NCBI GenBank assembly: GCA_016787525.1
Contig: JAEUUP010000027.1
Coordinates: forward strand, 3,058 to 67,057
DNA from: Saprospiraceae bacterium
GTDB taxonomy: Bacteria; Bacteroidota; Bacteroidia; Chitinophagales; Saprospiraceae
Length of the DNA: 64,000 bases
Direction: 5' to 3'
The notes beneath the pieces were generated by a model, which saw only the letters and a list, made by a program, of their open reading frames with translations, searched no databases and was not told the DNA's origin. A program made the translations under genes and the position numbers. Shown in pieces: positions 15,380 to 54,103 of the stretch (the first letter of the stretch is position 1; the number at the start of each line of letters is the position of its first letter).

Positions 15380-15575
15380 GACACCATTACACACTGTTTT
15401 TTCGCTCCGAAGGAGTCCCTGTGGACAAGCGAAAAAAATGTGCTTTTAAAATATTTCTTTCGGATTGAAGCTAAAAATTGAGGCAAAAGCCTCAATTTTT
15501 AGCTTCAATCCATAAAAAAACTTTTTGCACGCCTTTAGTGCGTAGCACGAAACAGTGAGTGATGGTGTCGTTTGT
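15380..15575. mobile_element. MITE-like element with ~21-bp terminal inverted repeats containing the REP-like core and a 21-bp perfect hairpin
   Basis: Terminal IRs: CGACACCATTACACACTGTTT (15380) and its near-complement AAACAGTGAGTGATGGTGTCG (15555). Core CTGTTTTTTCGCTCCGAAGGAGTCCCTGTGGACAAGCGAAAAAAA at 15395-15440. Perfect palindrome GGATTGAAGCTAAAAATTGAGG-caaaag-CCTCAATTTTTAGCTTCAATCC at 15462-15511. Lies directly 3' of folA. Confidence 0.55.
15462..15511. terminator. Perfect 22-bp-stem hairpin; probable bidirectional terminator downstream of folA
   Basis: GGATTGAAGCTAAAAATTGAGG caaaag CCTCAATTTTTAGCTTCAATCC, followed by an A/T run. Confidence 0.5.
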
Positions 15576-19870: not shown

Positions 19871-19959
19871 CTAAGAATAAAGACATTAAGTACAAAGACA
19901 AAAACTCTTTACTGAGGGGGTCTAATAATCTTTGTACTTAATGTCTTTTGACTTAACTA

Positions 19960-23182: not shown

Positions 23183-23773
23183 ATGCAAGCTACGCAAACA
23201 GCACAACTCGCAGATCAAGAGTTGATAGACCTTTACCTCAACGGCAATGAGAAAGCATTCGAAATTTTACTTCGCCGCCACAAAGCACGTATCTATACGT
23301 CTATTTACATCTTCTGCAAAGACGCGCAGTTAGCCGAAGATATTTTCCAAGAAGTTTTCATCAAAATCATCAACACTCTCCGTTCGGGTCGCTACAACCA
23401 TGAAGGCAAGTTCCTCCAATGGGCTTTACGTATTTCGCACAATCTATGTGTGGACTATTTTCGCCGCGACAAACGTCGTCCAACGATGGGTCAAACTGAT
23501 GAATATGATATTTTCAACGTCATTGGCTTGTCGGACGAAAGTCCTGAGCAAAATATCATGCGTAGCCAAACACACGAGCGTATCCGTCATTTGGTTGATT
23601 CATTGCCTATTGAACAACGTGAAGTTGTCGTTTTGAGACACTATGCTGATATGAGTTTTAAGGAAATCGCGTCGTTGACACGTGTGAGCATCAATACTGC
23701 TTTGGGTCGTATGCGCTACGCTCTCATAAACATGCGCCGTATGGTTGAGGAAAAAGATTTGATATTGCAATAA
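23183..23773 (+). CDS. ECF-type sigma-70 family RNA polymerase sigma factor
   Basis: 196 aa. Region 2 (...FQEVFIKIINTL...) and region 4 HTH (SFKEIASLTRVSINTALGRMRYAL). Confidence 0.75.
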   Translation: MQATQTAQLADQELIDLYLNGNEKAFEILLRRHKARIYTSIYIFCKDAQLAEDIFQEVFIKIINTLRSGRYNHEGKFLQWALRISHNLCVDYFRRDKRRPTMGQTDEYDIFNVIGLSDESPEQNIMRSQTHERIRHLVDSLPIEQREVVVLRHYADMSFKEIASLTRVSINTALGRMRYALINMRRMVEEKDLILQ

Positions 23774-23802
23774 ATTTAATTTTCATACATTCTGAGTTGG
23801 AA

Positions 23803-23844
23803 TACTGAGGGGTCATACTTTCACACGAAAGCGACCCCTCAGTT
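23803..23844. terminator. Hairpin built from an inverted pair of the TACTGAGGGG motif, downstream of the ECF sigma gene
   Basis: TACTGAGGGGTC-atactttcacacgaaagc-GACCCCTCAGT, an 11-bp stem. Confidence 0.5.
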
Positions 23845-26067: not shown

Positions 26068-26272
26068 TTTAAATCACTGGTTTTACTGAATCGAAAACAA
26101 ATAAAACTTCTGAATATAGCACAAAGTTACAGGTTTTTATATGATTCATAGGGCATAATGAGCGGTGAATTTCAAAAAAATACTGTTAATTTGTCCCATT
26201 CTTCAACTAATTTTAAACAAGTGCGACGAAAGGCATACTTCACGCTTTCGTTCACCTAAAATCAACAACAAA

Positions 26273-26689
26273 ATGACACTCTTGTTCAATTTAATGGGCA
26301 ACGTAGGCAGTTTTACACTTGTCAAAATGCTCGTTCCTGCTTTTATGGCCATTCTCTTTTTGCAAGCTGGATTCGATAAAGTATTGAATTACAAAGGCAA
26401 TCTTGATTATTTTACCGATTATTTTAAAAACAGCCCCCTCTGTAAAACAGTAGGCTTATTGATGCCAACGATCACGCTCTTGGAAGTAGCTGCGGGCATC
26501 CTTTCGGCCATCGGTACAGTAGCTCTGCTTTTAGGCAATGAAATCTTGGCTTATGTCGGTTTGATGCTCTCCGCTACATCTATTCTTTGTCTGTTTTTTG
26601 GACAACGCATGGCAAAAGATTATGGCGCATCTGCTTCCATGACGGGCTACTTTATTGCGGCTTTAGTTGGTTTATTGATGTTGGCGTGA
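26273..26689 (+). CDS. DoxX-like integral membrane protein
   Basis: Four predicted TM helices. ...MLVPAFMAILFLQAGFDKV... resembles the DoxX family. Confidence 0.4.
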   Translation: MTLLFNLMGNVGSFTLVKMLVPAFMAILFLQAGFDKVLNYKGNLDYFTDYFKNSPLCKTVGLLMPTITLLEVAAGILSAIGTVALLLGNEILAYVGLMLSATSILCLFFGQRMAKDYGASASMTGYFIAALVGLLMLA

Positions 26690-26730
26690 GGCGTTTAAAG
26701 GATACCCTTCAGTAAGCCATCTGTATATTC

Positions 26731-27114
26731 TTACTGAGGGGTGTCTTTCAAGTTTTGAATTTGAGCCAATAAGTCTGCTTTTTGGGCTTCGTAGATGGCT
26801 TTTTGCTCTTCATAAAATTTGGCTTTATTTTTAGTTTGAAAAATATCAAACCCCCATATAGCAAGCATGAGTATTCCACTAAGCAACCCTCCATTACCAA
26901 TAAATGACATAAAATATAAACAAATAATAGTCATACAGGCAAAAATCCAAAAGCCAATTTGTACGTCAGTACTATCTAATTTTGGAATAAAATCTTGTCC
27001 TCGCCCTACTACTTTAAAACCATCCTGCCGCCGCAGCCATTGTGCCTCCAATTCTGCGAGGGCTTTTTCTAATTTTAGAATATCTATTTGCGTTTGTGGA
27101 TTCATTTTTTCCAA
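26731..27114 (-). CDS. Hypothetical membrane protein with flanking coiled-coil segments
   Basis: 127 aa with two central TM helices. It overlaps the upstream gene end by 13 nt, which suggests an operon. Confidence 0.4.
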   Translation of the reverse strand: MEKMNPQTQIDILKLEKALAELEAQWLRRQDGFKVVGRGQDFIPKLDSTDVQIGFWIFACMTIICLYFMSFIGNGGLLSGILMLAIWGFDIFQTKNKAKFYEEQKAIYEAQKADLLAQIQNLKDTPQ

Positions 27115-28358: not shown

Positions 28359-28509
28359 AAATTTAGTTTTAAAAACGGGTGGCGTAAAAATATAAACGTA
28401 AAAGTTTCGGAAACGATACGAACACCGAAAACGCTGCTGTTTACTCCCCTCAGTAAAACAGCCTTTGCACGGGTGTGCAAAGGCTGTTTTAATTAAAGAA
28501 TTCATCAAA

Positions 28510-28740
28510 TTAAGCGGCTTGTTTCAACTCAAACTGAACATCAATTTCAGCCAAAAGCGTTATTAACTCGGTGACGAGTTGCGCTTTCATCCTTTGCTTT
28601 GATTCAATCAAATACGCAGGGGCATCCATCGAAAGAGCTTGTTTGATGCCTGTGCTGTACATCTTTATCAATTCGACAGTGCGAGTGATGCGCGTCAAAA
28701 GTTCATCTTGATGGGTCGGATCATTTTGTATTGTTACCAT
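28510..28740 (-). CDS. Small hypothetical protein, partner of the upstream minimal nucleotidyltransferase
   Basis: 76 aa, helical composition. Its start is 5 nt after the stop of the MNT-like gene. No HEPN Rx4-6H motif is evident. Confidence 0.4.
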   Translation of the reverse strand: MVTIQNDPTHQDELLTRITRTVELIKMYSTGIKQALSMDAPAYLIESKQRMKAQLVTELITLLAEIDVQFELKQAA

Positions 28741-29188: not shown

Positions 29189-29453
29189 GTTTTTTGATGT
29201 TTGTTTTAGAATAAAAAAATTGAGTCAAGGACAAATTTACATTTAACAATGATATTTAAGCGTTTTTGGGTACAATAGTCACATTTTTTACACAATATAC
29301 ATTGATTGAAAAAGAGCTTTCTAAAAAGACATTGTCTTGGCGTATTTCCCTAATTATCACAGAACTTATACGGAATATGCCGTGTCTTGATGTTTACCCT
29401 CAGTAAAAGAGCCTTTGCGTGGATATTGGGGGTATTAGCATTAAAATGCTTCA

Positions 29454-29912
29454 TTTTGCAAGTTGCAACGCACTTTTGCAAGTTGCAACGGACTTTTGCA
29501 ACTTGCAAAGGACTTTTGCAAATTGCAACGCACTTTTGTAAGTTGCAAAGGACTTTTGCAAGCTGCAACGCACTTTTGCAAATTGCAACGCACTTTTGCA
29601 AGCTGCAAAACACTTTTGCAAATTGCAACGCACTTTTGTAAGTTGCAAAGGACTTTTGCAAGCTGCAAAGGACTTTTGCAAGTTGCAACGCACTTTTGCA
29701 AGTTGCAACGCACTTTTGCAAGTTGCAACGGACTTTTCCAAGTTGCAAAGGACTTTTGCAAGTTGCAAAGGACTTTTCCAAGCTGCAACGCACTTTTGCA
29801 AGCTGCAACGCACTTTTGCAGCTTGCAACGCACTTTTGCAAATTGCAACGCACTTTTGCAAGCTGCAAAACACTTTTGCAAATTGCAAAAACCTTTTGCA
29901 CGCTGCAAAAAC
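29454..29912. repeat. Tandem array of ~23 units of a 20-bp repeat TTGCAAGTTGCAACGCACTT (variants GCAAAGGACTT / GCAACGGACTT / TTGCAAGCTG / TTGCAAATTG)
   Basis: Directly visible periodicity. Each unit carries the palindromic hexamer TTGCAA twice (GTTGCAAC is also self-complementary). All six reading frames are open across the array, which is a non-coding hallmark. Confidence 0.9.
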
Positions 29913-30141
29913 CGCTATAAGTGGGTAAAATGACTAAATGACCTGCGGCAAACCCTTTGGGCATGAATATGAGTTCAATTAAATGCTATCGTTAAGCTAA
30001 AAACGGACGTGTCTGAAGGACTCTTTTGGAGAAATACAGAAATCAGAGACCCCTCAGTATTAGAGAAACCAAACTCCAAAATAGTCCTTTGGATAGTGTC
30101 GTTCGTTTGTGTCAGCGGGATAAGCACATTGTATAATTAAC

Positions 30142-34040: not shown

Positions 34041-34712
34041 ATGAAAAAAAGCACCTTGTTTTCCTTAATTCTATTCTTAGCCTCTCAATCACTCGTTTTT
34101 GCACAAGATGTGTGCGAAGAAATGATGAAATTCAATGATTATGCAAAAAATCACAACCGCACTTCCCGAATGACAATGACTATGTCTCCTATGGGTCAAA
34201 CACAGATTACAGAATCCGACGGCAAAGGCAGATTTCACATGACCATGGCGATGGAAACACCTATGCAATTGAAAATGGAAAGTGTGCTTACGGGCAATCA
34301 GCTGTACACCAAAAAAGATGATGAAGATTGGAAAGCACAAGATTTGGATAGTGTGCAAATCGCAAGTATGAAACAAAAGTGGCAAAACAACCAGCTTCAG
34401 TTTTTCAAAAATTGCAAAAAACTGGACAATGAAACCATTGGTGGACAAGAATATCGTGTCTATTCAGGCGATTTTGATTACGAAAAAATGCGTGATTACA
34501 TGGGGCAAAACAATGAAGCACAACAAAGTTTAGCCATGTTGCAAAATATGGATATAAAAATGACTTTTTATGTCAACAAGAAAGATGATTTGGAAAGAGC
34601 CAAAATGAAAATGAATGTGCAAGGTATGAGTATTGATGCAGATATGGTTTATGAATATGATTTGCCCATTGTCATTAATATTCCGCCACCGCCAGCACCC
34701 AAAAAAGACTAA
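34041..34712 (+). CDS. Secreted Met-rich hypothetical protein
   Basis: Signal peptide. MTMTMSPM, HMTMAMETPM and similar Met-rich motifs. Confidence 0.4.
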   Translation: MKKSTLFSLILFLASQSLVFAQDVCEEMMKFNDYAKNHNRTSRMTMTMSPMGQTQITESDGKGRFHMTMAMETPMQLKMESVLTGNQLYTKKDDEDWKAQDLDSVQIASMKQKWQNNQLQFFKNCKKLDNETIGGQEYRVYSGDFDYEKMRDYMGQNNEAQQSLAMLQNMDIKMTFYVNKKDDLERAKMKMNVQGMSIDADMVYEYDLPIVINIPPPPAPKKD

Positions 34713-34784
34713 AAAGATGGAGATACTGAGGGGGTAAAACAAAAAAGGCAGCTTGCAAATGAATGCAAACTGCCTTTTGTTGTG

Positions 34785-35173
34785 TGGAGCTGGAGGGCAT
34801 CGAACCCTCGTCCGGTCAAAGCATCAGAGAGCTTTCTACATGTTTAGTCGCCATATTTGTTTTTTCGAGCTGTGGGGAGGTTGGGCGACACACCCAGACC
34901 GCAGCCTTATCTCTTTGGATTTCGCCAACAGCCAGAGCGCTCTGTTAACTATTCTGATTAGGGATGATACGCCGCACGGCAGAAATCAGACAATCTGCGA
35001 AGACCACGTAGGTCGTGTGCTGAGCGCAAAGGCATTCTAACTCCTAGAATTAGGCTGCCATGGCATATTGATAGTTGCCAGCTGTAGTTTAAAGTACCGT
35101 TTTACGGGAGGTAACATCATAGCCCGACATGCTTACTAACCAATTCACTTTCCCGTCGAATCCAGTCAGCCCC
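34785..35173 (-). ncRNA. ssrA: tmRNA (SsrA), predicted tag approximately A-GNYQYAMAA
   Basis: Reverse complement starts GGGGCTGACTGGATTCGACGGG and ends GGACGAGGGTTCGATGCCCTCCAGCTCCA, which are the canonical tmRNA 5' end and tRNA-like 3' end. The internal reading frame GCT GGC AAC TAT CAA TAT GCC ATG GCA GCC TAA follows an in-frame stop. Confidence 0.85.
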
Positions 35174-36850: not shown

Positions 36851-37147
36851 AGAAAAAGCTCCCTCAGAAGCTGTTTTAAAACCTATAAACACTATTTTTG
36901 ACTGTTTTTCTGCTCCGAAGGAGTCCCTTTGGACAAGCAGAAAAAAGCGTGCTTTGTTATATTTCCTTCGGAGCGAAGCTATTTTTTGATGTTTTTCGCA
37001 AGCGAAAAACATCAAAAAATAGCTTCGCTCCATAAAAGACCATTCTTGTACGCTTTTTTTCGCTTGTCCAAAGGACTCCTTCGGAGCGAAAAAACAGTGC
37101 GTGATTGTTCGATTAGGTTTTAAAATAGCTTCTGAGGGAGCTTTTTC
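36851..37147. mobile_element. ~300-bp nested-palindrome MITE-like element (full copy)
   Basis: Outer 32-bp IRs GAAAAAGCTCCCTCAGAAGCTGTTTTAAAACC (36851) and GGTTTTAAAATAGCTTCTGAGGGAGCTTTTTCC (37115). Inside is the REP-like core forward (36901-36950) and reverse (37051-37099), flanking a perfect 31-bp-arm central hairpin (CGGAGCGAAGCTATTTTTTGATGTTTTTCGC | GCGAAAAACATCAAAAAATAGCTTCGCTCCG). The element begins at the histidine kinase stop codon. Confidence 0.6.
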
Positions 37148-37290: not shown

Positions 37291-38364
37291 ATGAGGAAAC
37301 CACCATTTCTATTGGCTTTCGCACTATTAGCATTCGTTGCCTGTGTTCCTGTAAAAAAACCTGAAGACGACATAAAACCTGAAGACGCTGTTTGGCAAAT
37401 GGTTGCTGATATAAACGCTTCTGACAGTCAAATTAGGTCTATCTATGCCACACCATTTGAAATCTATTTTGCATCCGATAGTTACCTTTTTCGATTAGAT
37501 ACCGCTTTCAAATTGCTCGAAAAAAGGATTCTAACGCCTATTGACCGTTCGCCCTATCGTCGAGTTATTATGAGTGACAACACGTTCACACGACTCTATC
37601 AAGGTGCGTCGGGTGCTTATACATTAGAGTTTAGGCACACCCGTAATTCCAATGTAATCAAACGTTTTACAACAACTGAATTGGTGGACACTGCCAGAAG
37701 GGAAACTTTCGATATGGAAACCAATATCCGTCAATATGGCTGCTACAACAGCGATGGCACTAAATTCATGCTGCCAGGTCGCCTTTTGCCCGCCAATAAG
37801 CCTTATGTGCTGCTTTTAGATGTCAATTTGACTTTTTTGCAGGATGACATAGCAAGTGTCAAAGTCGCCAAACGAGTCGAGTTGCCTAATTTGAATATTG
37901 ATAAATTTGAATCTTTCCGCTATTTGAATGGCAATTTTTATATCGCCACTTATGAAGGCGGTTTTCGTATCACGCCTGATGGGCAAGTACGCAAATTGTT
38001 CAATAATTGGGTCAAAGACTTCTTTGCCATTGGCGACAAACTCTATGTGACTGGCGGCGGTGACTACGATTTTCAAACATCCACCGACAATGGTTTGACA
38101 TGGAAACGTTCTCTGCCCAGTTCTTTAAAATACATCGAAACAGCCAATAACAAGGTTTTCTCACATGCTTTGACGGGTTTACCTTTTGGTTTGGCAGATT
38201 CTTCGTTGACAAAAGTTCAACCTTTGAAATACAATACCGATATGACTTTTGGCAATGTTTCGGACTTTGATATTGCTTATTTCAAAGGACGTTATTTCAC
38301 TAATTCAAAATTAGGTAAAAATGAAGTGCATGTTTTTCTAACTAAAATATTGCAAACCAAATAA
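37291..38364 (+). CDS. Hypothetical lipoprotein
   Basis: 357 aa. Signal peptide with Cys (LAFVAC). Confidence 0.4.
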   Translation: MRKPPFLLAFALLAFVACVPVKKPEDDIKPEDAVWQMVADINASDSQIRSIYATPFEIYFASDSYLFRLDTAFKLLEKRILTPIDRSPYRRVIMSDNTFTRLYQGASGAYTLEFRHTRNSNVIKRFTTTELVDTARRETFDMETNIRQYGCYNSDGTKFMLPGRLLPANKPYVLLLDVNLTFLQDDIASVKVAKRVELPNLNIDKFESFRYLNGNFYIATYEGGFRITPDGQVRKLFNNWVKDFFAIGDKLYVTGGGDYDFQTSTDNGLTWKRSLPSSLKYIETANNKVFSHALTGLPFGLADSSLTKVQPLKYNTDMTFGNVSDFDIAYFKGRYFTNSKLGKNEVHVFLTKILQTK

Positions 38365-38380: not shown

Positions 38381-38432
38381 CCCCTCAGTAAAAAAGCCTT
38401 CGCAAGCCTGTGAAGGCTTTTTTCATTTGTAG
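38381..38432. terminator. Motif-plus-hairpin terminator element (CCCCTCAGTAAAAAAGCCTTCGCAAGCCTGTGAAGGCTTTTTT)
   Basis: Uptake-like motif followed by a GC stem (AGCCTTCGCA...TGTGAAGGCT) and a T-run, immediately 3' of the + strand gene ending at 38364. Confidence 0.5.
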
Positions 38433-38642: not shown

Positions 38643-39539
38643 ATGAAAACAATCAAGCAACTCGCGCTGATGAGCGCAGCACTTTTCTATTGCCTTATGC
38701 TCCATGCAGCTACACCGAACAACACAATCGCACCCAATGCCGTTGACCCTAAACTATTGGCGCAATCTGCGACTACCGCCAGCAGTATCGCCGATTTGAT
38801 ACTCGAAGCCATTATGAATTTTACGCCGACCAATTACCCCACCAAGCCTGTGACATTGGGCACTTGCCCTGTCGTCACACTCACGCCGAGTGGCACGAGC
38901 AATCCATTTCCATGCAGCATCAAGATTGATTTTGGTGCAGGCTGCACGACACGTTCGGGTGCTTATGCCGAAGGTTCTGCCACCGCTACGTTTACGAATC
39001 GGGTGAGTATTCCGAATGCACAAGTCAATTGCACGTTCACCAATTTCAAATACAATGGTATATTGACCTCTGGGGCAATTAGCTTTACGATGGAAGGCAA
39101 TGATTTTGTTGCCTATCAAAACATCAAAATTGTTGCAACAGACTTGTACATGCGCGTTGGTTTGCAATCTGTTACATACAAAACACTCGAAATGCGCCGC
39201 AAACAAGTCGGCGGTTTGGAAACGATTCCATCGTATCAAGGCAATTTTGAATGGATAAAAGACGATGTGTATGAAACAGAAATCACAAAAGGAGAATGCG
39301 TGTTTTTGGGCGAAAAAACCAGTAATGTGGCTGTCGAAGCGACCGTCGTAACAACTAAAAACTTGACAAAAGCCTACACCTGTCAATATCCTTCATCGGG
39401 CATTCTGAAACTGACTGGCACAGAAAAAGATTCTTATGCCACCGTTGATTTTGGCAATGGCACATGCGACAATACGATAATCATTAAAATGGGTGACAAT
39501 CCAAGAGGACTCGAAGTACCACTACCTGCACGTCCTTAG
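38643..39539 (+). CDS. Hypothetical secreted protein
   Basis: 298-aa ORF with a signal peptide. Confidence 0.4.
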   Translation: MKTIKQLALMSAALFYCLMLHAATPNNTIAPNAVDPKLLAQSATTASSIADLILEAIMNFTPTNYPTKPVTLGTCPVVTLTPSGTSNPFPCSIKIDFGAGCTTRSGAYAEGSATATFTNRVSIPNAQVNCTFTNFKYNGILTSGAISFTMEGNDFVAYQNIKIVATDLYMRVGLQSVTYKTLEMRRKQVGGLETIPSYQGNFEWIKDDVYETEITKGECVFLGEKTSNVAVEATVVTTKNLTKAYTCQYPSSGILKLTGTEKDSYATVDFGNGTCDNTIIIKMGDNPRGLEVPLPARP

Positions 39540-39558
39540 TGAGCAATAAAGTAATGTA

Positions 39559-39611
39559 CCTCTCAGTAAAAAAGCCTTTGCGATGTTGCGAAGGCTTTTT
39601 TACTGAGGGGT
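39559..39611. terminator. Hairpin flanked by inverted motif copies (CTCAGTAAAAAAGCCTTTGCGATGTTGCGAAGGCTTTTTTACTGAGGGGT)
   Basis: Near-perfect palindrome with an A/T stretch, 20 nt after the stop of the + strand gene. Confidence 0.5.
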
Positions 39612-39680
39612 ATGTATCTTAAAAAAGAAGGCAAGAATAGGGAAGTCTAATGTCAAACTAAAAATAAGCAACTTTCAATT

Positions 39681-40271
39681 TCAAAGAATGACCTTTCTAA
39701 AAGTCAATGAAACGCGGCGTTTCCGTTGAAAAACTTGATTTTCAAACACATCTTTTTGTCTTGCAGGTATCGAATGAGTCCATTCATAACGACTTTCGCC
39801 TTTCAGAATGACGGCACTACGAGGTTCAAGTAGGATAGGAATTTTAATATTGTTTCTACAAAATTCCATAACGGCGGTTGAATTGAGTGAAATAGACACA
39901 ATTGTATCTTCAAAACAAGGTTCACAATCAATATGTGGGCTGATACCTTGTCCAGGCTCATATTCATTGACGATAACTTGGTCTGGTATATCCTCAAATA
40001 CCCCCTCAGTATAAAGGCGTTTTGCGATGTTTTCTAAACAACTTGGCAACGTCCCTATTTTCATAGACACATCAATGCGTCGCGCTCGGTAGTCGTATTT
40101 GTACCCATAATGTTGCACTCGGCGTTTTAAATCCAAAAGCCAATTTTGAGCATCAATTTGGGTAAATAAAAATGCTTCCTCTTCCTGCGAGATATAATTT
40201 GGATGATAAGACAGCCCCGCAATAGGGTTTGAATACACTTCTTTTTGAAACAGATTGAGTTGATTGGACAT
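39681..40271 (-). CDS. alkB: AlkB-like Fe(II)/2-oxoglutarate-dependent dioxygenase (DNA/RNA alkylation repair)
   Basis: 196 aa. HxD...H triad context (GISPHIDCE ... H) and C-terminal RVSLTFR, which carries the 2OG-binding Arg. Confidence 0.65.
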   Translation of the reverse strand: MSNQLNLFQKEVYSNPIAGLSYHPNYISQEEEAFLFTQIDAQNWLLDLKRRVQHYGYKYDYRARRIDVSMKIGTLPSCLENIAKRLYTEGVFEDIPDQVIVNEYEPGQGISPHIDCEPCFEDTIVSISLNSTAVMEFCRNNIKIPILLEPRSAVILKGESRYEWTHSIPARQKDVFENQVFQRKRRVSLTFRKVIL

Positions 40272-41058: not shown

Positions 41059-41145
41059 CGGTTTATTTGATATGGTTTGTAAAACAAAAAGCCGATACCC
41101 CTCAGTATATCGGCTTTTGTTTCATTTCAGATATTTGAAAATCAA

Positions 41146-47223: not shown

Positions 47224-47233
47224 GGGTTGTATT

Positions 47234-47344
47234 ACTGAGGTTTGGGAGCGTTCTACTGAGGGGGTGATAAGTTCTACTGAGGTTTGAGAGCGTTCTACTG
47301 AGGGGGTGATTTGAAATCACCCCCTCAGTAGAACCATTTTCGAG
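47234..47344. repeat. Cluster of five TACTGAGG-family motif copies: two 40-bp direct repeats plus a 19-bp-stem perfect hairpin
   Basis: GTTCTACTGAGGTTTGrGAGCGTTCTACTGAGGGGGTGAT repeated twice, then GTTCTACTGAGGGGGTGAT-ttgaa-ATCACCCCCTCAGTAGAAC. Lies immediately 3' of folD. Confidence 0.85.
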
Positions 47345-47345
47345 G

Positions 47346-47722
47346 TTACTTGCTCCAATTTTGAGCTTGCTTGCTCAATTTTTGAGCTTGCTTGCTCCAA
47401 TTTTGAGCTTGCTTGCTCCAATTTTGAGCTTGCTTGCTCCAATTTTGAGCTTACTTGCTCAATTTTTGAGGTTGCTTGCTCAATTTTTGAGCTTGCTTGC
47501 TCAATTTTTGAGCTTGCTTGCTCCAATTTTGAGCTTACTTGCTCAATTTTTGAGGTTGCTTGCTCAATTTTTGAGCTTACTTGCTCAATTTTTGAGGTTG
47601 CTTGCTCAATTTTTGAGCTTACTTGCTCAATTTTTGAGCTTGCTTGCTCAATTTTTGAGCTTGCTTGCTCCGATTTTGAGCTTGCTTGCTCAATTTTTGA
47701 GCATCTCTCCTCCATTTTTGAG
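47346..47722. repeat. ~18 tandem copies of a 21-bp repeat TTGCTCAATTTTTGAGCTTGC; the minus-strand frame encodes the heptad (SSKIEQA)n
   Basis: Visible 21-nt periodicity. Variants alter only I/L and A/V/T positions of the heptad. The ORF track shows a 132-aa minus-strand ORF (47317..47715) and a 131-aa plus-strand ORF over the same repeats. Confidence 0.85.
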
Positions 47723-48612: not shown

Positions 48613-48886
48613 GGTCAAGAATCTTGTATCATTTCAAGGTTGTTGAGTGTGCATCTATAAAAAATGAGGCTTACGAAATCCTAATATTTCGTAAGCCTCC
48701 TACTTTAAGCCCCCCCTCAGTAAAAACCGAGAAAGCCTGTTAATATTCGTATCAACAAATAATTTCACAAGAGCATTTATCGTTTTTTAACCTTCAAAGA
48801 TTGACTATTCATTGAATCTTACGCATATTTGTTTGATTGACTGTTTAACTCATCGTCCATTTACTCAATATTTAATGTCTGACAGC

Positions 48887-51800
48887 ATGAAGAAGTTTAT
48901 ATTATTCTCTCTTTTTTTGGCATTTTCTTTCTCAAAATCTTTGTCCCAATCGTCAACGACAAAGCCTGCGGCGGCGGCGGTTACAAAGCCCGCTTTGACG
49001 GAAACACCCGCGGAGTTTTTGAAAAAGTTGGAGACTTACGTGACATACAGCCAGCAGCAACAATCTATTTCGACCTTCAAAGCCTTTGAGACGAAGTTCA
49101 AAGGTGGTGCTTTTACGGACGAAGAGCAGACTCGACTGATGACGATTTGTAATGATATGCTGACTTTGAAATTGAACTCAACACCTTATTTTACGGACTT
49201 CTTGCACAGTGCAACGGCGGTGGAGTCAGGCGGTAAGGAATCGCGTTTCGAGAAATGGTTGACGGTGTTAGAACCCATGATAGCCGATGCGATGCAGATA
49301 CGGAAGTTCGAGCCGATAAGACGCTTTTTGGAGTTTTCGACTGATTTCTTCGACCACAATGCCTTGTTCTACGGCACGAATAGCATCAACTGGTATGTGG
49401 ACAATCGCGACTATGTTTGGAAATCGAACAAGGGTATCCCCTCAGTATCGTGGGACAAATTGACAATCAAGGCGGTCTATAAAAAGGATTCGATAGAGAT
49501 AAAAAATACAAAAGGGACGTTTTTCCCAGTGTCGAACCAATGGGAAGGAAGTGGCGCGATAGTGAATTGGGAGCGATTCAAGAACAATGAAATTGAATGC
49601 AAGCTGGGCGATTATTCGATAGATGTGTCGAAAGGTTTTTACAGGGCGGAAAAAGCGTTGTTGAAGTATCCTGCTTTGTTTCCCGACAAAGATATAGAAG
49701 GCGTGTTTGAAGACAAAGTGAACTTCGGCAATGCGACAGTTGAAAACACCTATCCGCGATTCGAATCGTATGAAAAGCGTTTGAAATTGAGCAGTATTGG
49801 TAAAAACATCCAATATCAAGGGGGCTTTCGACTCTATGGCATGACGGTTTTTGGCTACGGTACAAAGGACGAAAAAGCGAATTTGATGATTAACGACAGC
49901 AAGAAAGGTCATCGCGCATTCCGCTCGACCTCAGAGCTTTATGTGATTCGCAAAGGCGAAAGCATTTTGTCCGAAAGCTCCGAAGCGGTCATCTACTTTG
50001 GTTCGGATTCAATTTACCACCCCTCAGTAAATTTGAAGATGAATGTGGCTGAGAACATTTTGATGCTCGACAGAGGCGAGCGAGCGAGCCAACGCAACCC
50101 GTTCTTCAATTCGTATCACCAAGTGAATATGGTGATGAGCAAGATAAAATGGTATATTGACAAGGACTCCATCATTTTGGGCGACAAACAACCGGGTTAT
50201 GGCATCAACAGCAATAATGCTTTGTTTGAATCTCTAAAGTTTTTCAGCGAACCCGACTTCCGCAAGTTTCAGAATATTTCGACACGCAATCCCGTTTCAG
50301 TCTTGAAGATGTACAGCGACCAAGTGCAGAAGCGCATTCTGAATGCCGACGATGCTGTTCGCCAAATCAACCCGAAGATGGACGCGGGCATGGTTCAAAG
50401 TCTTTTATACGAGTTAGTATCCAATGGTTTTGTGAATTACGATGCTGAAAAGAACATTTTGGAACTCAAAGACAAGGTTTTCCACTATTCGTTAGCCAAT
50501 CAGAAAAAAGTAGATTACGATGTACTTAGGGTTTCATCCGAAACCATCAAAGAAAATTCCAATTTCTTTTTGTTGGACACCACAATCCGCATCAACGGTG
50601 TCAAAGGAGTCGAATTGAGTAACAAACAGAAAATCAGAGTTGTCCCACGCAACGAAGAAGTGATCTTGAAACGCAATCGCGACTTCGACTTCGATGGTCG
50701 GATGCACGCAGGCTTTTCAATTTTTTACGGCAAGAAATTCCATTTCAACTACGACCATTTCGATGTGACGATAGACTCAGTGCGGTATCTCGACTTGTAT
50801 CTTAAAACAGGTGAAGACCAGTACAAACGACCGATAGCGTCGGCCATCAATTCCCGCTTGGAGCATCTCAGTGGTGTGCTGTTGATAGATGCGCCGAACA
50901 ACAAATCGGGACGAGAAGATGTGAAAATTATGCCTTCGTTTCAGTCCAAAAACCACAGTTATGTCTTCTACGATGCACCTGAAAACCAAGATGGGGTTTA
51001 CAAAAGAGATTCATTTTATTTCAAGTTGGACAAATTCAATCTCGACGGTTTGGACAGCTTGGACAGAAAGCAATTGAATTTTAAGGGGACGATGGTTTCG
51101 ACGAATATCTTTCCTGATTTTAGAGAGACACTGATGTTGCAACCCGATTCATCGCTGGGTTTCATAACGCCTTCGCCTACTGAGGGGTATCCTTTGTACA
51201 GTGCAAAAGGTAATTTCAAAGGTGACATAATGTTGAACAATAAAGGTTTTTTTGGCAAAGGCTCTGTCAAATACCTCGATGCCACTATTGAGTCACAAGA
51301 CGTTGTTTTCAGACCCAAACAGATGGGTGCCAGTGCGAAAAGCTTTTTCTTAGCAGAGAACCGCCCCAAAAACACACCTCAAGTGGTGGCTCCAGGTGTT
51401 GAAATTGACTGGCGACCCAGTCGTGACTCGATGTATCTGACTTCAAAGGATTCCGCGTTTAAGATATACCCCGAAGGCAATTATTCGATGCGCAACACCA
51501 TTATCTTAACGCCAAGTGGTGTGAAAGGCATAGGCACTTTTGAATGGGAAAAGGGCTATTTGAAGTCGAAGCTGTTCTCTTTTGGCGCGCACTCGGTTGC
51601 AGCCGATACGATGTCGCTCAGTATCCGAGCTTTATCGAATGTATCGGACCAGTTGGCGTTGGACACACGTAATGTCAGAGGCAAAATTGATTTTGACAAG
51701 CAAATCGGTAATTTCAAATCCAATTCGGAGGATGTGATGACCTATATGCCAGGTATCAAATACAAAACAACCATCAACGAGTTCGATTGGGATTTGCAGA

Positions 51801-53431
51801 CCGAGAATATTGATTTCCACTCCGACGGCAAACCTGCTTACTTTTTGAGTGTGGACAAAGAGCAAGACTCACTGTATTTCTTCGGATTGAAAGCCTCTTA
51901 CGACTTGAAATCTAATATTTTGAAAGTGCGTGGCGTTGACCATATCAAAACCTGCGATGCATTTGTCTATCCCGACTCCAACAAGACCCAAGTCGAATTG
52001 GGCGGCAAGATGTCCACTCTGATGAATGCCCGCATCGTTTGCGATACCTTGACGAAGCATCACGTCATCAACCGCGCCACAGTCAATATAAAAGGACGCA
52101 AAGACTACACCGCCAACGGCTTTTATGAATACAACGTGGCTGGCAAAAATCAAGAAATCAAGTTCGACAATATTATTGGTCAGCCAGTTGGCACAGGTTA
52201 TCGCTACCAAAAGCGGACTGAAACCTCTGCCACAGGTACAGTCAAAGCTGAAGATGATTTTTTGATAGACAACAAAACGACGTTTAAAGGGACAATCGCT
52301 CTGTCATCGGGTTCAAAGAATCTGCGGTTCGAGGGTTTTGCGCGGTTCGAGCATGAAAACTTGCCAAACCGCCAGTGGTTCAGTATCAACTCCTATGCCG
52401 ACAAATCTGACTTGGCTTTGCGCTACAATGTACCGAAAAACGAAGAAGGGACACCGCTCTACACAGGCATCTACATCAGCAAAGAGAACGCGCAAGCTTA
52501 TCCACGCGCCATGATGTCTTTGTCTTTTGCCAAAGACCGCCCTGTGATAGAGGTGAAAGGTATCTTTAAGTACAACGCAGGTACAGATCAAATCACATTT
52601 GGCGACTCACTCAAAGTGCGAGGTTCGTCGTTGCAAGGCAACAAAATGATTTATGACAACCGCACAGGCGTTGTCAACTGTGAAGGCAAGTTTTCAATCG
52701 GCGCAGGTCTGCAACACATCAAAGTCACTGCTGCAGGAACCGCTCGCACCAAATTCCTATCGCCCAGCGAAGAACAAAGAGACTCAAACGGCATCAAAGG
52801 CAGCCCCCTCAGTATAGAAGTGATGGCAGCACTCCAAATGTACATCCCCGACAAACTCTTGAAAATCATGGCTGCTGACATACAAGCAGGTACATTCGAT
52901 GCACCTGACACCGATTACAAAAAAGATGATTTTGCCGAAAAAGCGTTGGCAGAGTTTATTACTGACGAAAAGGATTATAAAAAAATCGTGACCGAAATGA
53001 AAGAAAAAACATTGGATTTGCCCGACAAATACAATAAAAACAGCTTTTTCTTCAGTCGCATGTCCATGCGTTGGAACTCCGAACTACAAAGTTTTGTCAG
53101 CTACGGTTCAAAAGCAGACTTGAACAGCGTTTTAGGTATTCCTATCAACAAAAAAGTAACAGCTTGGGTTGAATTCAAACAGCCATCCAACAACGACGAC
53201 CGCGTCTATGTCTATATCAAAACAGCCAACGACTTTTTCTACTTCTTTGGCTATCAAAAAGGCGTATTAGGCATGGCTTCGACCAACCCGAAAATGGAAG
53301 AAGAGTTCAACAAAATCAAACCCAAAGAGCGCATTGCCAAAACAGAAACTGGCACAATCGAACTTCAATGGGAAGATGCTGGCAAAGGCGAGATGTTTGT
53401 GCGTCGCGTACAAGGGGCACAAGGCAAATAG
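48887..53431 (+). CDS. Very large (~1515 aa) secreted/outer-membrane-associated hypothetical protein, possibly AsmA/TamB-like
   Basis: Uninterrupted 4.5-kb ORF with an N-terminal signal/anchor (MKKFILFSLFLAFSFS) and beta-rich composition. The family assignment is a guess. Confidence 0.45.
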   Translation: MKKFILFSLFLAFSFSKSLSQSSTTKPAAAAVTKPALTETPAEFLKKLETYVTYSQQQQSISTFKAFETKFKGGAFTDEEQTRLMTICNDMLTLKLNSTPYFTDFLHSATAVESGGKESRFEKWLTVLEPMIADAMQIRKFEPIRRFLEFSTDFFDHNALFYGTNSINWYVDNRDYVWKSNKGIPSVSWDKLTIKAVYKKDSIEIKNTKGTFFPVSNQWEGSGAIVNWERFKNNEIECKLGDYSIDVSKGFYRAEKALLKYPALFPDKDIEGVFEDKVNFGNATVENTYPRFESYEKRLKLSSIGKNIQYQGGFRLYGMTVFGYGTKDEKANLMINDSKKGHRAFRSTSELYVIRKGESILSESSEAVIYFGSDSIYHPSVNLKMNVAENILMLDRGERASQRNPFFNSYHQVNMVMSKIKWYIDKDSIILGDKQPGYGINSNNALFESLKFFSEPDFRKFQNISTRNPVSVLKMYSDQVQKRILNADDAVRQINPKMDAGMVQSLLYELVSNGFVNYDAEKNILELKDKVFHYSLANQKKVDYDVLRVSSETIKENSNFFLLDTTIRINGVKGVELSNKQKIRVVPRNEEVILKRNRDFDFDGRMHAGFSIFYGKKFHFNYDHFDVTIDSVRYLDLYLKTGEDQYKRPIASAINSRLEHLSGVLLIDAPNNKSGREDVKIMPSFQSKNHSYVFYDAPENQDGVYKRDSFYFKLDKFNLDGLDSLDRKQLNFKGTMVSTNIFPDFRETLMLQPDSSLGFITPSPTEGYPLYSAKGNFKGDIMLNNKGFFGKGSVKYLDATIESQDVVFRPKQMGASAKSFFLAENRPKNTPQVVAPGVEIDWRPSRDSMYLTSKDSAFKIYPEGNYSMRNTIILTPSGVKGIGTFEWEKGYLKSKLFSFGAHSVAADTMSLSIRALSNVSDQLALDTRNVRGKIDFDKQIGNFKSNSEDVMTYMPGIKYKTTINEFDWDLQTENIDFHSDGKPAYFLSVDKEQDSLYFFGLKASYDLKSNILKVRGVDHIKTCDAFVYPDSNKTQVELGGKMSTLMNARIVCDTLTKHHVINRATVNIKGRKDYTANGFYEYNVAGKNQEIKFDNIIGQPVGTGYRYQKRTETSATGTVKAEDDFLIDNKTTFKGTIALSSGSKNLRFEGFARFEHENLPNRQWFSINSYADKSDLALRYNVPKNEEGTPLYTGIYISKENAQAYPRAMMSLSFAKDRPVIEVKGIFKYNAGTDQITFGDSLKVRGSSLQGNKMIYDNRTGVVNCEGKFSIGAGLQHIKVTAAGTARTKFLSPSEEQRDSNGIKGSPLSIEVMAALQMYIPDKLLKIMAADIQAGTFDAPDTDYKKDDFAEKALAEFITDEKDYKKIVTEMKEKTLDLPDKYNKNSFFFSRMSMRWNSELQSFVSYGSKADLNSVLGIPINKKVTAWVEFKQPSNNDDRVYVYIKTANDFFYFFGYQKGVLGMASTNPKMEEEFNKIKPKERIAKTETGTIELQWEDAGKGEMFVRRVQGAQGK

Positions 53432-53442
53432 AATAGTGCTTT

Positions 53443-53474
53443 TACTGAGGGGTGGATTAATCTACCCCTCAGTA
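53443..53474. terminator. Inverted motif pair hairpin (TACTGAGGGGTGGA-ttaa-TCTACCCCTCAGTA) 12 nt after the stop of the large ORF
   Basis: Directly visible palindrome. Confidence 0.5.
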
Positions 53475-53482
53475 TATCAAAA

Positions 53483-54103
53483 TCACTGAATCGGATAACA
53501 CGTATATTCCCCTCGTTCTTCGGCTTCGTGTGAAGAAAGGTCAAATGAGATGTACTGACCATAGCCAAAACTCAAACCTTGTTTTTCCCATTTTTCCCTA
53601 TCAGGACACACCGAAGCCGCCAATCTCAAGTTCCGTGTATCTAAAGGAGTCATATAAATCAGCTTATTCTGTTCAAAACGCATCTCCGTTTCGTACCTCG
53701 CTTCGTGGACGGGTTTTCGATTTTTCAGGTCATAAATAAGCAGCGAACGACCATTCGGTCCAGTGCCATTGTCCACAAACATCAAATTGTCTTTGATGCC
53801 ATAAAAATGGTGTGCATCAATATTCTCAATCCAAAAGGTATCTTTCACCCCCTCAGTAAAAACATAAATTTCCTCGCCAACACCTTCTTCTGAAAGCACT
53901 GTTTTTATTTTATGTTTGGCATAACTATAATTTCGCCCCGTCGTTGTTTCTTCGCATTTAGCTGATTCGCAACCTTTTATGCCCACAAGCGTATCGCGTT
54001 GAGCCGTTGCTACCGAAGACTTAGATGACGCTGTTTGACTTTTATTTTGACCGCAAGCGGAAATAAAAAGCGTGGACAAAAACAGTAAGATTAGATTTTT
54101 CAT
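53483..54103 (-). CDS. Hypothetical lipoprotein
   Basis: 206 aa. Signal peptide plus ISACG lipobox. Confidence 0.4.
   Translation of the reverse strand: MKNLILLFLSTLFISACGQNKSQTASSKSSVATAQRDTLVGIKGCESAKCEETTTGRNYSYAKHKIKTVLSEEGVGEEIYVFTEGVKDTFWIENIDAHHFYGIKDNLMFVDNGTGPNGRSLLIYDLKNRKPVHEARYETEMRFEQNKLIYMTPLDTRNLRLAASVCPDREKWEKQGLSFGYGQYISFDLSSHEAEERGEYTCYPIQ

Follow-up and report, generated by a model that had tools for sequence, protein, structure and literature searches.

Inverted copies of an abundant, uptake-sequence-like motif form hairpins at gene ends in a freshwater Saprospiraceae bacterium

Introduction

Downstream of an ECF sigma factor gene in a freshwater Saprospiraceae bacterium, two copies of a common 9-mer stand in opposite orientation and fold into a hairpin. 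Why does a motif that is scattered through genes and spacers alike form such a pair at the end of a gene, and does the stem-loop serve the transcript that it follows? The DNA analyzed here, called the window, is a 64,000-nucleotide stretch of a 67-kb contig. It comes from an uncultured member of the Bacteroidota that is known from MAGs alone, and it is a housekeeping stretch carrying the dcw cluster, alaS, the IMPDH gene, folD, ppk, and the tmRNA gene. The original prediction named four gene 3' ends with inverted pairs, took these for intrinsic-terminator-like hairpins of the kind formed by the Neisseria DUS and the Haemophilus USS, and held the motif to be old and functionally integrated.

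A survey of 177 genomes from late 2025 describes uptake sequences only in the Neisseriaceae and Pasteurellaceae, and about 75 to 90% of the inverted-repeat uptake sequences in these families fall in predicted terminators (10.1101/2025.10.24.684340). The competent Riemerella columbina, which belongs to the Bacteroidota, prefers its own DNA, and no signal for this has been identified. A literature search with the 9-mer string returned primers and unrelated matches only. In the literature on Saprospiraceae or Bacteroidota we found no report of such a motif, nor of competence or repeats in Saprospiraceae.

Results

Five inverted pairs fold into stable stem-loops past stop codons

We used ORF-based gene models and checked them by Pfam, Rfam, and the called genes of relatives' loci. 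The ECF sigma gene (23183 to 23773) matches Pfam Sigma70_r2/r4/ECF. The focal hairpin behind it starts 31 nt past the stop codon (Table 1). The outer stem joins ACTGAGGGGTC at 23804 to GACCCCTCAGT, whose end is at 23843; it is 11 bp long and encloses a 5-bp CTTTC/GAAAG stem. The tail, TGTTTCTATTCTT, has T at five of eight positions, and the right arm ends 147 nt from the stop codon of the convergent FTCD gene (23990). The hairpin has a minimum free energy (MFE) of -28.8 kcal/mol, with a z score of -7.4. Rfam matched no known RNA family at this site; its only matches in the window were the tmRNA and two tRNAs. We ruled out an assembly artifact, because assemblies made independently from separate samples (L201, L202, L203, L207, and L208) contain the focal hairpin as well.

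The other three gene ends named in the original prediction also carry stable stem-loops, and we found a fifth pair that it had not listed. This fifth pair is placed between the convergent ORFs 26165-26689 (+) and 26731-27114 (-). It folds at -26.9 kcal/mol (z = -5.3), with a tail of 4/8 T. The pair after the 298-aa ORF starts 17 nt past the stop codon and is flanked by convergent ORFs 38643-39539 (+) and 39681-40271 (-). Its motif arms enclose a classical bidirectional terminator, A6-GCCTTTGC-loop-GCGAAGGC-T6, so that the total arms reach 25 to 27 nt, and it has an MFE of -44.3 kcal/mol (z = -12.4). The pair after the 1539-aa ORF starts 12 nt past the stop codon, with convergent ORFs 48812-53431 (+) and 53483-54103 (-) on its two sides, and has an MFE of -24.6 kcal/mol (z = -6.8) and a T-tail on neither strand (2/8 T).

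The folD pair is at a tandem junction, where both genes run in the same direction, 69 nt past the folD stop codon (47223). Its stem had been called perfect, and it is, but it had been placed at 47303 to 47345, about 10 nt to the right of its real position. The MFE is -36.9 kcal/mol (z = -8.6), the tail has 4/8 T, and the perfect arms are equally stable on either strand. The left arm comes from a short 21-bp tandem array. The folD-prmA spacer is filled by a second 21-bp tandem array (47336 to 47722), with 18.4 copies of the unit ATTTTTGAGCTTGCTTGCTCA at 89% matches, and the ORF that overlaps it (47317 to 47715) has low-complexity coiled-coil Pfam matches only and is probably no gene.

Table 1. 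Positions of motif pairs, single-copy gene-end structures, and associated features in the window
Feature	Position	Strand	Details
Focal inverted pair, ECF sigma 3' end	23803-23844	+	ACTGAGGGG 23804-23812; CCCCTCAGT 23835-23843
Fifth inverted pair	26698-26746	+	CCCTTCAGT (1 mismatch) 26705-26713; ACTGAGGGG 26733-26741; arms of about 19 nt
Inverted pair after 298-aa ORF	39556-39613	+	CCTCTCAGT (1 mismatch) 39559-39567; ACTGAGGGG 39602-39610
folD inverted pair	47292-47334	+	Perfect 21-nt arms GTTCTACTGAGGGGGTGATTT / AAATCACCCCCTCAGTAGAAC
21-bp tandem array, 3.4 copies	47233-47303	+	Units hold full or degenerate motif copies
Inverted pair after 1539-aa ORF	53443-53474	+	TACTGAGGGGTGGATT / AATCTACCCCTCAGTA; 16-nt arms, 94% complementary
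One-copy counterpart of the 39556 module	38381-38423	+	CCCCTCAGT-A6-GCCTTCGC...GAAGGC-T6, without second motif arm
20-bp hairpin, IMPDH / TonB-dependent receptor convergent junction	19879-19948	+	Motif copy 19911-19919 in loop
Terminator-like hairpin after alaS	41087-41118	-	AAAAGCCGATA-(motif)-TATCGGCTTTT; one loop motif copy; 28 nt downstream of alaS stop; scanner-flagged
Motif copy by bidirectional terminator	34725-34778	+	Motif 34725-34733; terminator common to ORF 34041-34712 (+) and tmRNA gene (-)
Perfect hairpin with adjoining motif	28446-28491	-	Hairpin 28454-28491, 17-nt arms; T-run runs into motif TTTTACTGAGGGG (- strand); downstream of ORF 28510-28740 (-)
21-nt block TTTTCATACATTCTGAGTTGG	23780-23800	+	Ends two bases 5' of focal hairpin; once in window
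tmRNA gene	34782-35173	-	Rfam
Two tRNA genes	943-1025, 1124-1196	both -	Rfam

As + strand RNA, the five pairs have MFEs of -24.6 to -44.3 kcal/mol and z scores of -5.3 to -12.4, and none of 200 dinucleotide shuffles folded as well. Overall, the z scores of the pairs span -4.3 to -12.4. These values agree with the stable stems of the original prediction. The hairpins start 10 to 69 nt past stop codons, and their stems are 14 to 29 bp long. In four of the five pairs the complementarity exceeds the motif, with arms of 16 to 27 nt. Such arms are nonrandom, since two independent motif insertions would not yield them. The mismatched positions of the three imperfect pairs (the fifth pair and those after the 298-aa and 1539-aa ORFs) are without exception G.U wobbles in the + transcript and A.C oppositions in the - transcript, which leaves the + RNA 4 to 11 kcal/mol more stable than the - RNA, a bias that, in this small sample, hints at selection at the RNA level.

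The motif is dense, nonpalindromic, and mostly inside genes

The window copies have the consensus 12-mer WT-ACTGAGGGG-K, which is a 9-mer core with weaker flanks. The core occurs 85 times in the 64-kb window, about once per 750 bases, where 0.2 copies are expected. The copies are split between the strands (43 on + and 42 on -), and their spacing is more even than random (CV 0.66). Most of them (65 of 85, or 76%) lie inside coding DNA, and the density between genes is about twice that in coding DNA. Of the possible frames and orientations, the coding copies use all five that create no stop codon, and none is in the TGA frame. PLS and TEG are the tripeptides encoded through the motif.

In these sequence properties the motif behaves like an uptake sequence. 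It is hundreds-fold over-represented in the window and reaches 0.5 to 1.3 copies per kb in 10 further loci, and it occurs in both orientations, in coding and noncoding DNA, with avoidance of stop frames and with constraint at the DNA level. A scan of metagenomes for ACTGAGGGG-N(0-30)-CCCCTCAGT found, among the matches listed, unrelated and mostly high-GC contigs, none of them motif dense. Position -7 from the core shows a weak extra conservation, with C present in 32 of the 65 coding copies where the background frequency is about 20%. A T-rich 3' flank of the USS kind seemed apparent by eye; it was rejected, as a T-run accompanies 7 of the 65 coding copies and the background is 0.119.

Placement and orientation of the pairs are nonrandom

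We defined a close pair as copies within 60 nt of each other and allowed one mismatch, which gave about 97 copies in 64 kb. The window contains five independent inverted pairs, and a uniform model gives 4.5 (P = 0.47). The pair count is unremarkable because the motif is so dense, and we rejected a simple over-representation of pairs, since the uniform null already accounts for it. However, coding DNA in the window contains no close pair, against 5.75 expected (P = 0.002). We then pooled 276.5 kb, made up of the window, ten relatives' loci, and one locus with a dialect of the motif (see below), as a sample of parts of these genomes. In this pool, there are no close pairs in coding DNA versus 14.1 expected (P of about 7e-7). 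In noncoding DNA, there are 12 inverted pairs at eight independent loci versus 3.8 expected, and one direct pair versus 3.8 expected.

The close pairs in the window are always inverted and never direct, the tandem array aside. They are present at four of seven convergent junctions, which total 685 bp, compared with one among the 41 remaining junctions (Fisher P = 0.00085). A genome-wide scan of inverted pairs relative to stop codons had been suggested as a check, and over 276 kb all eight independent loci are downstream of stop codons. What is nonrandom about the pairs is their placement and orientation, not their number.

The pairs have strong stems but often weak T-tails

All five pairs are stable, GC-rich stem-loops soon after a stop codon. 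A T-rich tail is found at the focal pair, and T6 follows the inner stem of the pair after the 298-aa ORF. At the other three pairs, T-tails are weak or absent. A simple scanner for a stem plus a T-run flagged none of the five, although it picked out terminators of the window that lack the motif, and the motif-free gene-end hairpins there have clear T-runs. The proposal that the pairs are intrinsic-terminator-like is supported by their strong stems at 3' ends and less so by their tails, and a function as intrinsic terminators is only partly supported by the sequence. The hairpins would halt transcripts or stabilize them.

Long hairpins without the motif also occur downstream of genes in the window, at 36970 to 37031 (30-nt arms, 100% complementary) and 15448 to 15525 (37-nt arms, 86% complementary). 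Long perfect palindromes at gene ends appear to be a general trait of the clade.

Single motif copies accompany other gene-end hairpins

Single copies are also associated with hairpins at gene ends. Copies at 19911, 30050, and 41098 are in the loop of such a hairpin, and those at 28446, 31732, 34725, 38381, and 56413 lie between the stop codon and the hairpin. Two of these motif-bearing gene ends belong to RNA genes, namely, the tmRNA and the tRNA pair. The MFE around single intergenic copies has a median of -19.8 kcal/mol, compared with -11.5 kcal/mol in motif-free intergenic windows (P = 0.0015). The motif itself contributes only about 2 kcal/mol to this extra structure. At the tmRNA and tRNA loci, the motif copies are just outside the terminators. 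The mechanical ORFs 34753-35040 and 867-1205 overlap the tmRNA and tRNA genes and are spurious.

The module at 38381 starts 17 nt past the stop codon of ORF 37291-38364, and the scanner flagged it at 38404 to 38419. It is nearly identical over about 45 nt to the module after the 298-aa ORF at 39556, and the two are behind adjacent genes. Gene duplication was rejected as the origin of these twin terminators, because the upstream proteins are unrelated (BLASTP E = 8.5). With one motif copy in the first module and two in the second, they look like the states before and after a stem was extended over an adjacent motif.

The motif is old in the clade and has a one-base dialect

ACTGAGGGG is the top 9-mer in every locus with an FTCD identity of at least 77%. 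There are 10 such loci besides the window, drawn from eight or more species-level lineages, with 0.5 to 1.3 copies per kb at a GC content of 35 to 49%. In the FTCD gene itself, motif copies are at identical codon positions, and CCC CTC AGT is invariant in eight species. The codons beside the motif change synonymously across the same eight species, and outgroups encode other residues at the motif positions. The shared positions, the drifting neighbors, and the outgroup residues together indicate an old motif that is under constraint as DNA and has altered the encoded proteins. The claim of an old motif is borne out to this depth.

One more distant locus, L214 (FTCD 75% identical), uses a one-base dialect, ACTGGGGGG / ATACTGGGGGG. 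The dialect occurs 19 times in the 21.7 kb of L214 (1 to 21683), which has no ACTGAGGGG, and the two forms exclude each other. Both forms are absent from the more distant relatives L215 to L217 and L004 to L006. The motif is therefore restricted to a clade and has a dialect in a related lineage, as uptake sequences do. L214 has two inverted pairs, at 858/904 and 11703/11748, both just past stop codons; one of its pairs starts 20 nt after the FTCD stop codon. These pairs have canonical A-run/T-run flanks, with T7 to T9 tails. Unlike the copies in the window, the dialect copies in L214 are mostly intergenic (about 14 of 19).

We considered GGATAATGG (L001) and GGATTTCGGAAT (L216) as further dialects and rejected them, because each occurs in one or two local hairpin clusters. 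They are found in lineage-specific gene-end hairpin repeats, at L001 4845 to 4934 and 5835 to 5911 (GGATAATGG type) and at L216 15808 to 16017 (GGATTTCGGAAT type). Strand use of the motif is balanced in 10 of 12 loci; in L204 (1 to 11764) the orientation is skewed, with 1 copy on + and 13 on -.

The focal pair is conserved, and the others turn over

The focal pair is kept in three other species (L201, L205, and L204). Four of its 17 stem pairs show double compensatory changes, and the spacer around it has diverged while the pair was retained. In L204 the neighboring gene differs, and the pair is still with the sigma gene. The T-rich tail is conserved as TGTTTYT in most orthologues. The TTTTCATACATTCTGAGTTGG block just upstream is identical in L201, L202, L203, L205, L207, and L208 and is altered in L204. 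The block may belong to a conserved 3'-UTR element or be the seed of a 3'-UTR-derived small RNA.

The other testable pairs behave differently. The folD pair is absent after folD in L001, L002, and L003, and the pair after the 1539-aa ORF is absent at the orthologous ends of the gene of about 1,510 aa in L001 to L003. The fifth pair is not conserved either, as L201 has a motif-free terminator after the orthologous 174-aa gene. Therefore, three of the four testable pairs are lineage specific, and the relatives' gene ends have unrelated long hairpins, an ordinary terminator, or none. Functional integration of the motif would fit the focal pair, with its compensatory changes across species, but does not hold at the three pairs that are replaced or absent. 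Gene-end hairpins are habitual in the clade, with turnover of their sequences, and are built from the motif in some lineages only.

Discussion

We favor, with moderate confidence, the explanation that the five sites are 3'-end hairpins made from a motif that an uptake-sequence-like drive has spread. In this model, the hairpins would be terminators or 3'-end protectors of transcripts, built from the clade-specific WT-ACTGAGGGG-K. A sequence-specific, genome-wide process that resembles DNA-uptake-sequence drive would spread and maintain the motif. The motif would build up wherever it is tolerated, and two close copies would be lost from coding DNA. The highest motif density would be tolerated in the spacers that follow genes, particularly at convergent junctions, and the inverted arrangement may persist there because it doubles as a stem-loop. 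A plausible origin of a pair is the extension of an existing terminator stem across a neighboring single copy. Inverted pairs would thus follow from motif density, the tolerance of gene 3' spacers, and the need for stems in them.

The pairs may instead be a neutral by-product, which we consider unlikely but worth serious weight. According to this explanation, the motif accumulates in 3' spacers as the least constrained DNA, and palindrome correction, that is, template switching at existing hairpins, copies it to the other arm, so that the pair adds no function beyond that of the prior hairpin. The pair number at the uniform expectation, the missing T-tails at several pairs, the lineage specificity of most testable pairs, with unrelated hairpins or none in relatives, and the one-armed and two-armed look of the 38381 and 39556 modules would all be expected, and arms that run far past the motif are what palindrome extension predicts. 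Neutrality does not readily account for the focal pair, which four species have kept with compensatory changes in a diverged spacer, or for the large excess of inverted over direct pairs. It is also strained by the dialect lineage, which repeats the gene-end pairs with canonical terminator flanks.

We regard a role of the pairs at the DNA level as improbable. The pairs would show the motif on both strands, or extrude cruciforms, for a motif-reading protein such as an uptake receptor, a recombination or repair factor, or a nucleoid protein, and convergent junctions would merely accommodate double sites. The analysis turned up no reader protein, the pairs follow gene 3' ends rather than an even spacing, and the greater stability of the + RNA in the three imperfect pairs, a small sample, suggests selection on the RNA. 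On the other hand, the motif is constrained as DNA even within genes, for which RNA structure does not matter, the existence of a dialect implies that a reader evolves along with the motif, and the perfect arms of the folD pair are equally stable on both strands.

Two further explanations are very improbable. A mobile palindromic element such as a REP, BIME, or MITE, if copied into gene ends, would also form hairpins between convergent genes as REPs do and could explain the module of about 45 nt behind two unrelated genes, but such units are extragenic and palindromic or bounded by terminal inverted repeats, and here 76% of motif copies are in coding DNA in several frames, the single motif is nonpalindromic, the coding copies are found at orthologous sites in different species and are not insertions, and the five hairpins are alike in the motif only, with different loops, flanks, and orientation; this reading is largely refuted. 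Equally remote is the idea that the motif, like Chi or KOPS, is a polar signal for recombination or segregation and that the pairs are incidental. Such signals are over-represented, species-specific short words, and the L204 bias would fit one, but no strand bias was found in the window or in most loci, and on this local test of strand balance we rejected the idea. A density of about one copy per 0.75 kb for a 9- to 12-mer exceeds by far the densities of the Chi and KOPS words that have been described.

Returning to the favored reading of 3'-end hairpins from a spreading motif, the comparison with DUS and USS drawn in the original prediction proves close, as every sequence-level hallmark that could be checked is present, the dialect included. 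Like the Neisseriaceae DUS (10 to 12 bp), the motif is a nonpalindromic 12-mer with an invariant core, with roughly one copy in each kilobase, found on either strand and in genes as well as spacers. It is also clade specific with a one-base dialect in a sister lineage, and its intergenic inverted pairs are stem-loops after genes. Unlike the DUS, it is found in the Saprospiraceae, within the Bacteroidota; its sequence is unrelated, 76% of its copies are coding as opposed to about 34% cited for N. meningitidis, and most of its pairs are poorly conserved between species. The window and the relatives' loci examined contain no gene for a ComP- or ComN-like minor pilin receptor and no competence or pilus genes. 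Like the Pasteurellaceae USS, the motif has a 9-bp invariant core with weaker flanks, is mostly genic in stop-avoiding frames, reshapes peptides, is evenly spaced, and forms inverted pairs at gene ends. The USS has a helically phased AT-rich 3' flank, of which the Saprospiraceae motif has no counterpart.

The hairpins share with intrinsic terminators a GC-rich stem-loop within 70 nt of the stop codon, and some are bidirectional between convergent genes. However, their stems are unusually long, and three of the five pairs have a weak U-tract or none. Like REP and BIME sequences, for which roles in termination and mRNA stabilization have been proposed, they are hairpins at gene ends and convergent junctions, but REPs are palindromic and strictly extragenic and the Saprospiraceae motif is asymmetric and mostly intragenic. 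The cyanobacterial HIP1 (GCGATCGC) is a hyper-abundant short word with lineage variants, which the motif resembles. The Neisseria NTS/dRS3 repeats are palindromic and tied to transformation, and 2% of NTS copies lie inside genes. HIP1 and NTS/dRS3 are both palindromic; the Saprospiraceae motif is asymmetric and 76% genic.

These comparisons hint at something new, an uptake-signal-like motif with gene-end pairs in a new phylum. We infer that the motif is read by a DNA-uptake receptor. More tentatively, and with somewhat more doubt than belief, we suggest that WT-ACTGAGGGG-K and ACTGGGGGG could be a true DNA uptake sequence system in freshwater Saprospiraceae, the first outside the Proteobacteria. 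If so, this would be a third independent case, in another phylum and with its own dialect, and the genome-wide signature would arise repeatedly. It would imply that natural competence with preference for self-DNA exists in Bacteroidota, along with a DNA receptor that evolves with the motif. The gene-end pairs would be an independent reinvention of the arrangement in Neisseria and Haemophilus in which an uptake signal serves as a terminator.

Such a case would also bear on the long-running debate over whether these motifs spread by molecular drive or selection, since one pair is conserved with covariation and the others turn over. The A/G dialect offers a handle for a receptor search through co-varying proteins. 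The motif could mark environmental Saprospiraceae that exchange DNA, and it flags gene-end hairpins that standard terminator finders miss. The window also contains another repeat-rich region at 29350 to 29964. It corresponds to a 204-aa ORF with no Pfam match, has a GC content of 35%, and is filled with dense direct and inverted repeats of the TTGCAAGCTGCAACGCACTTT type.
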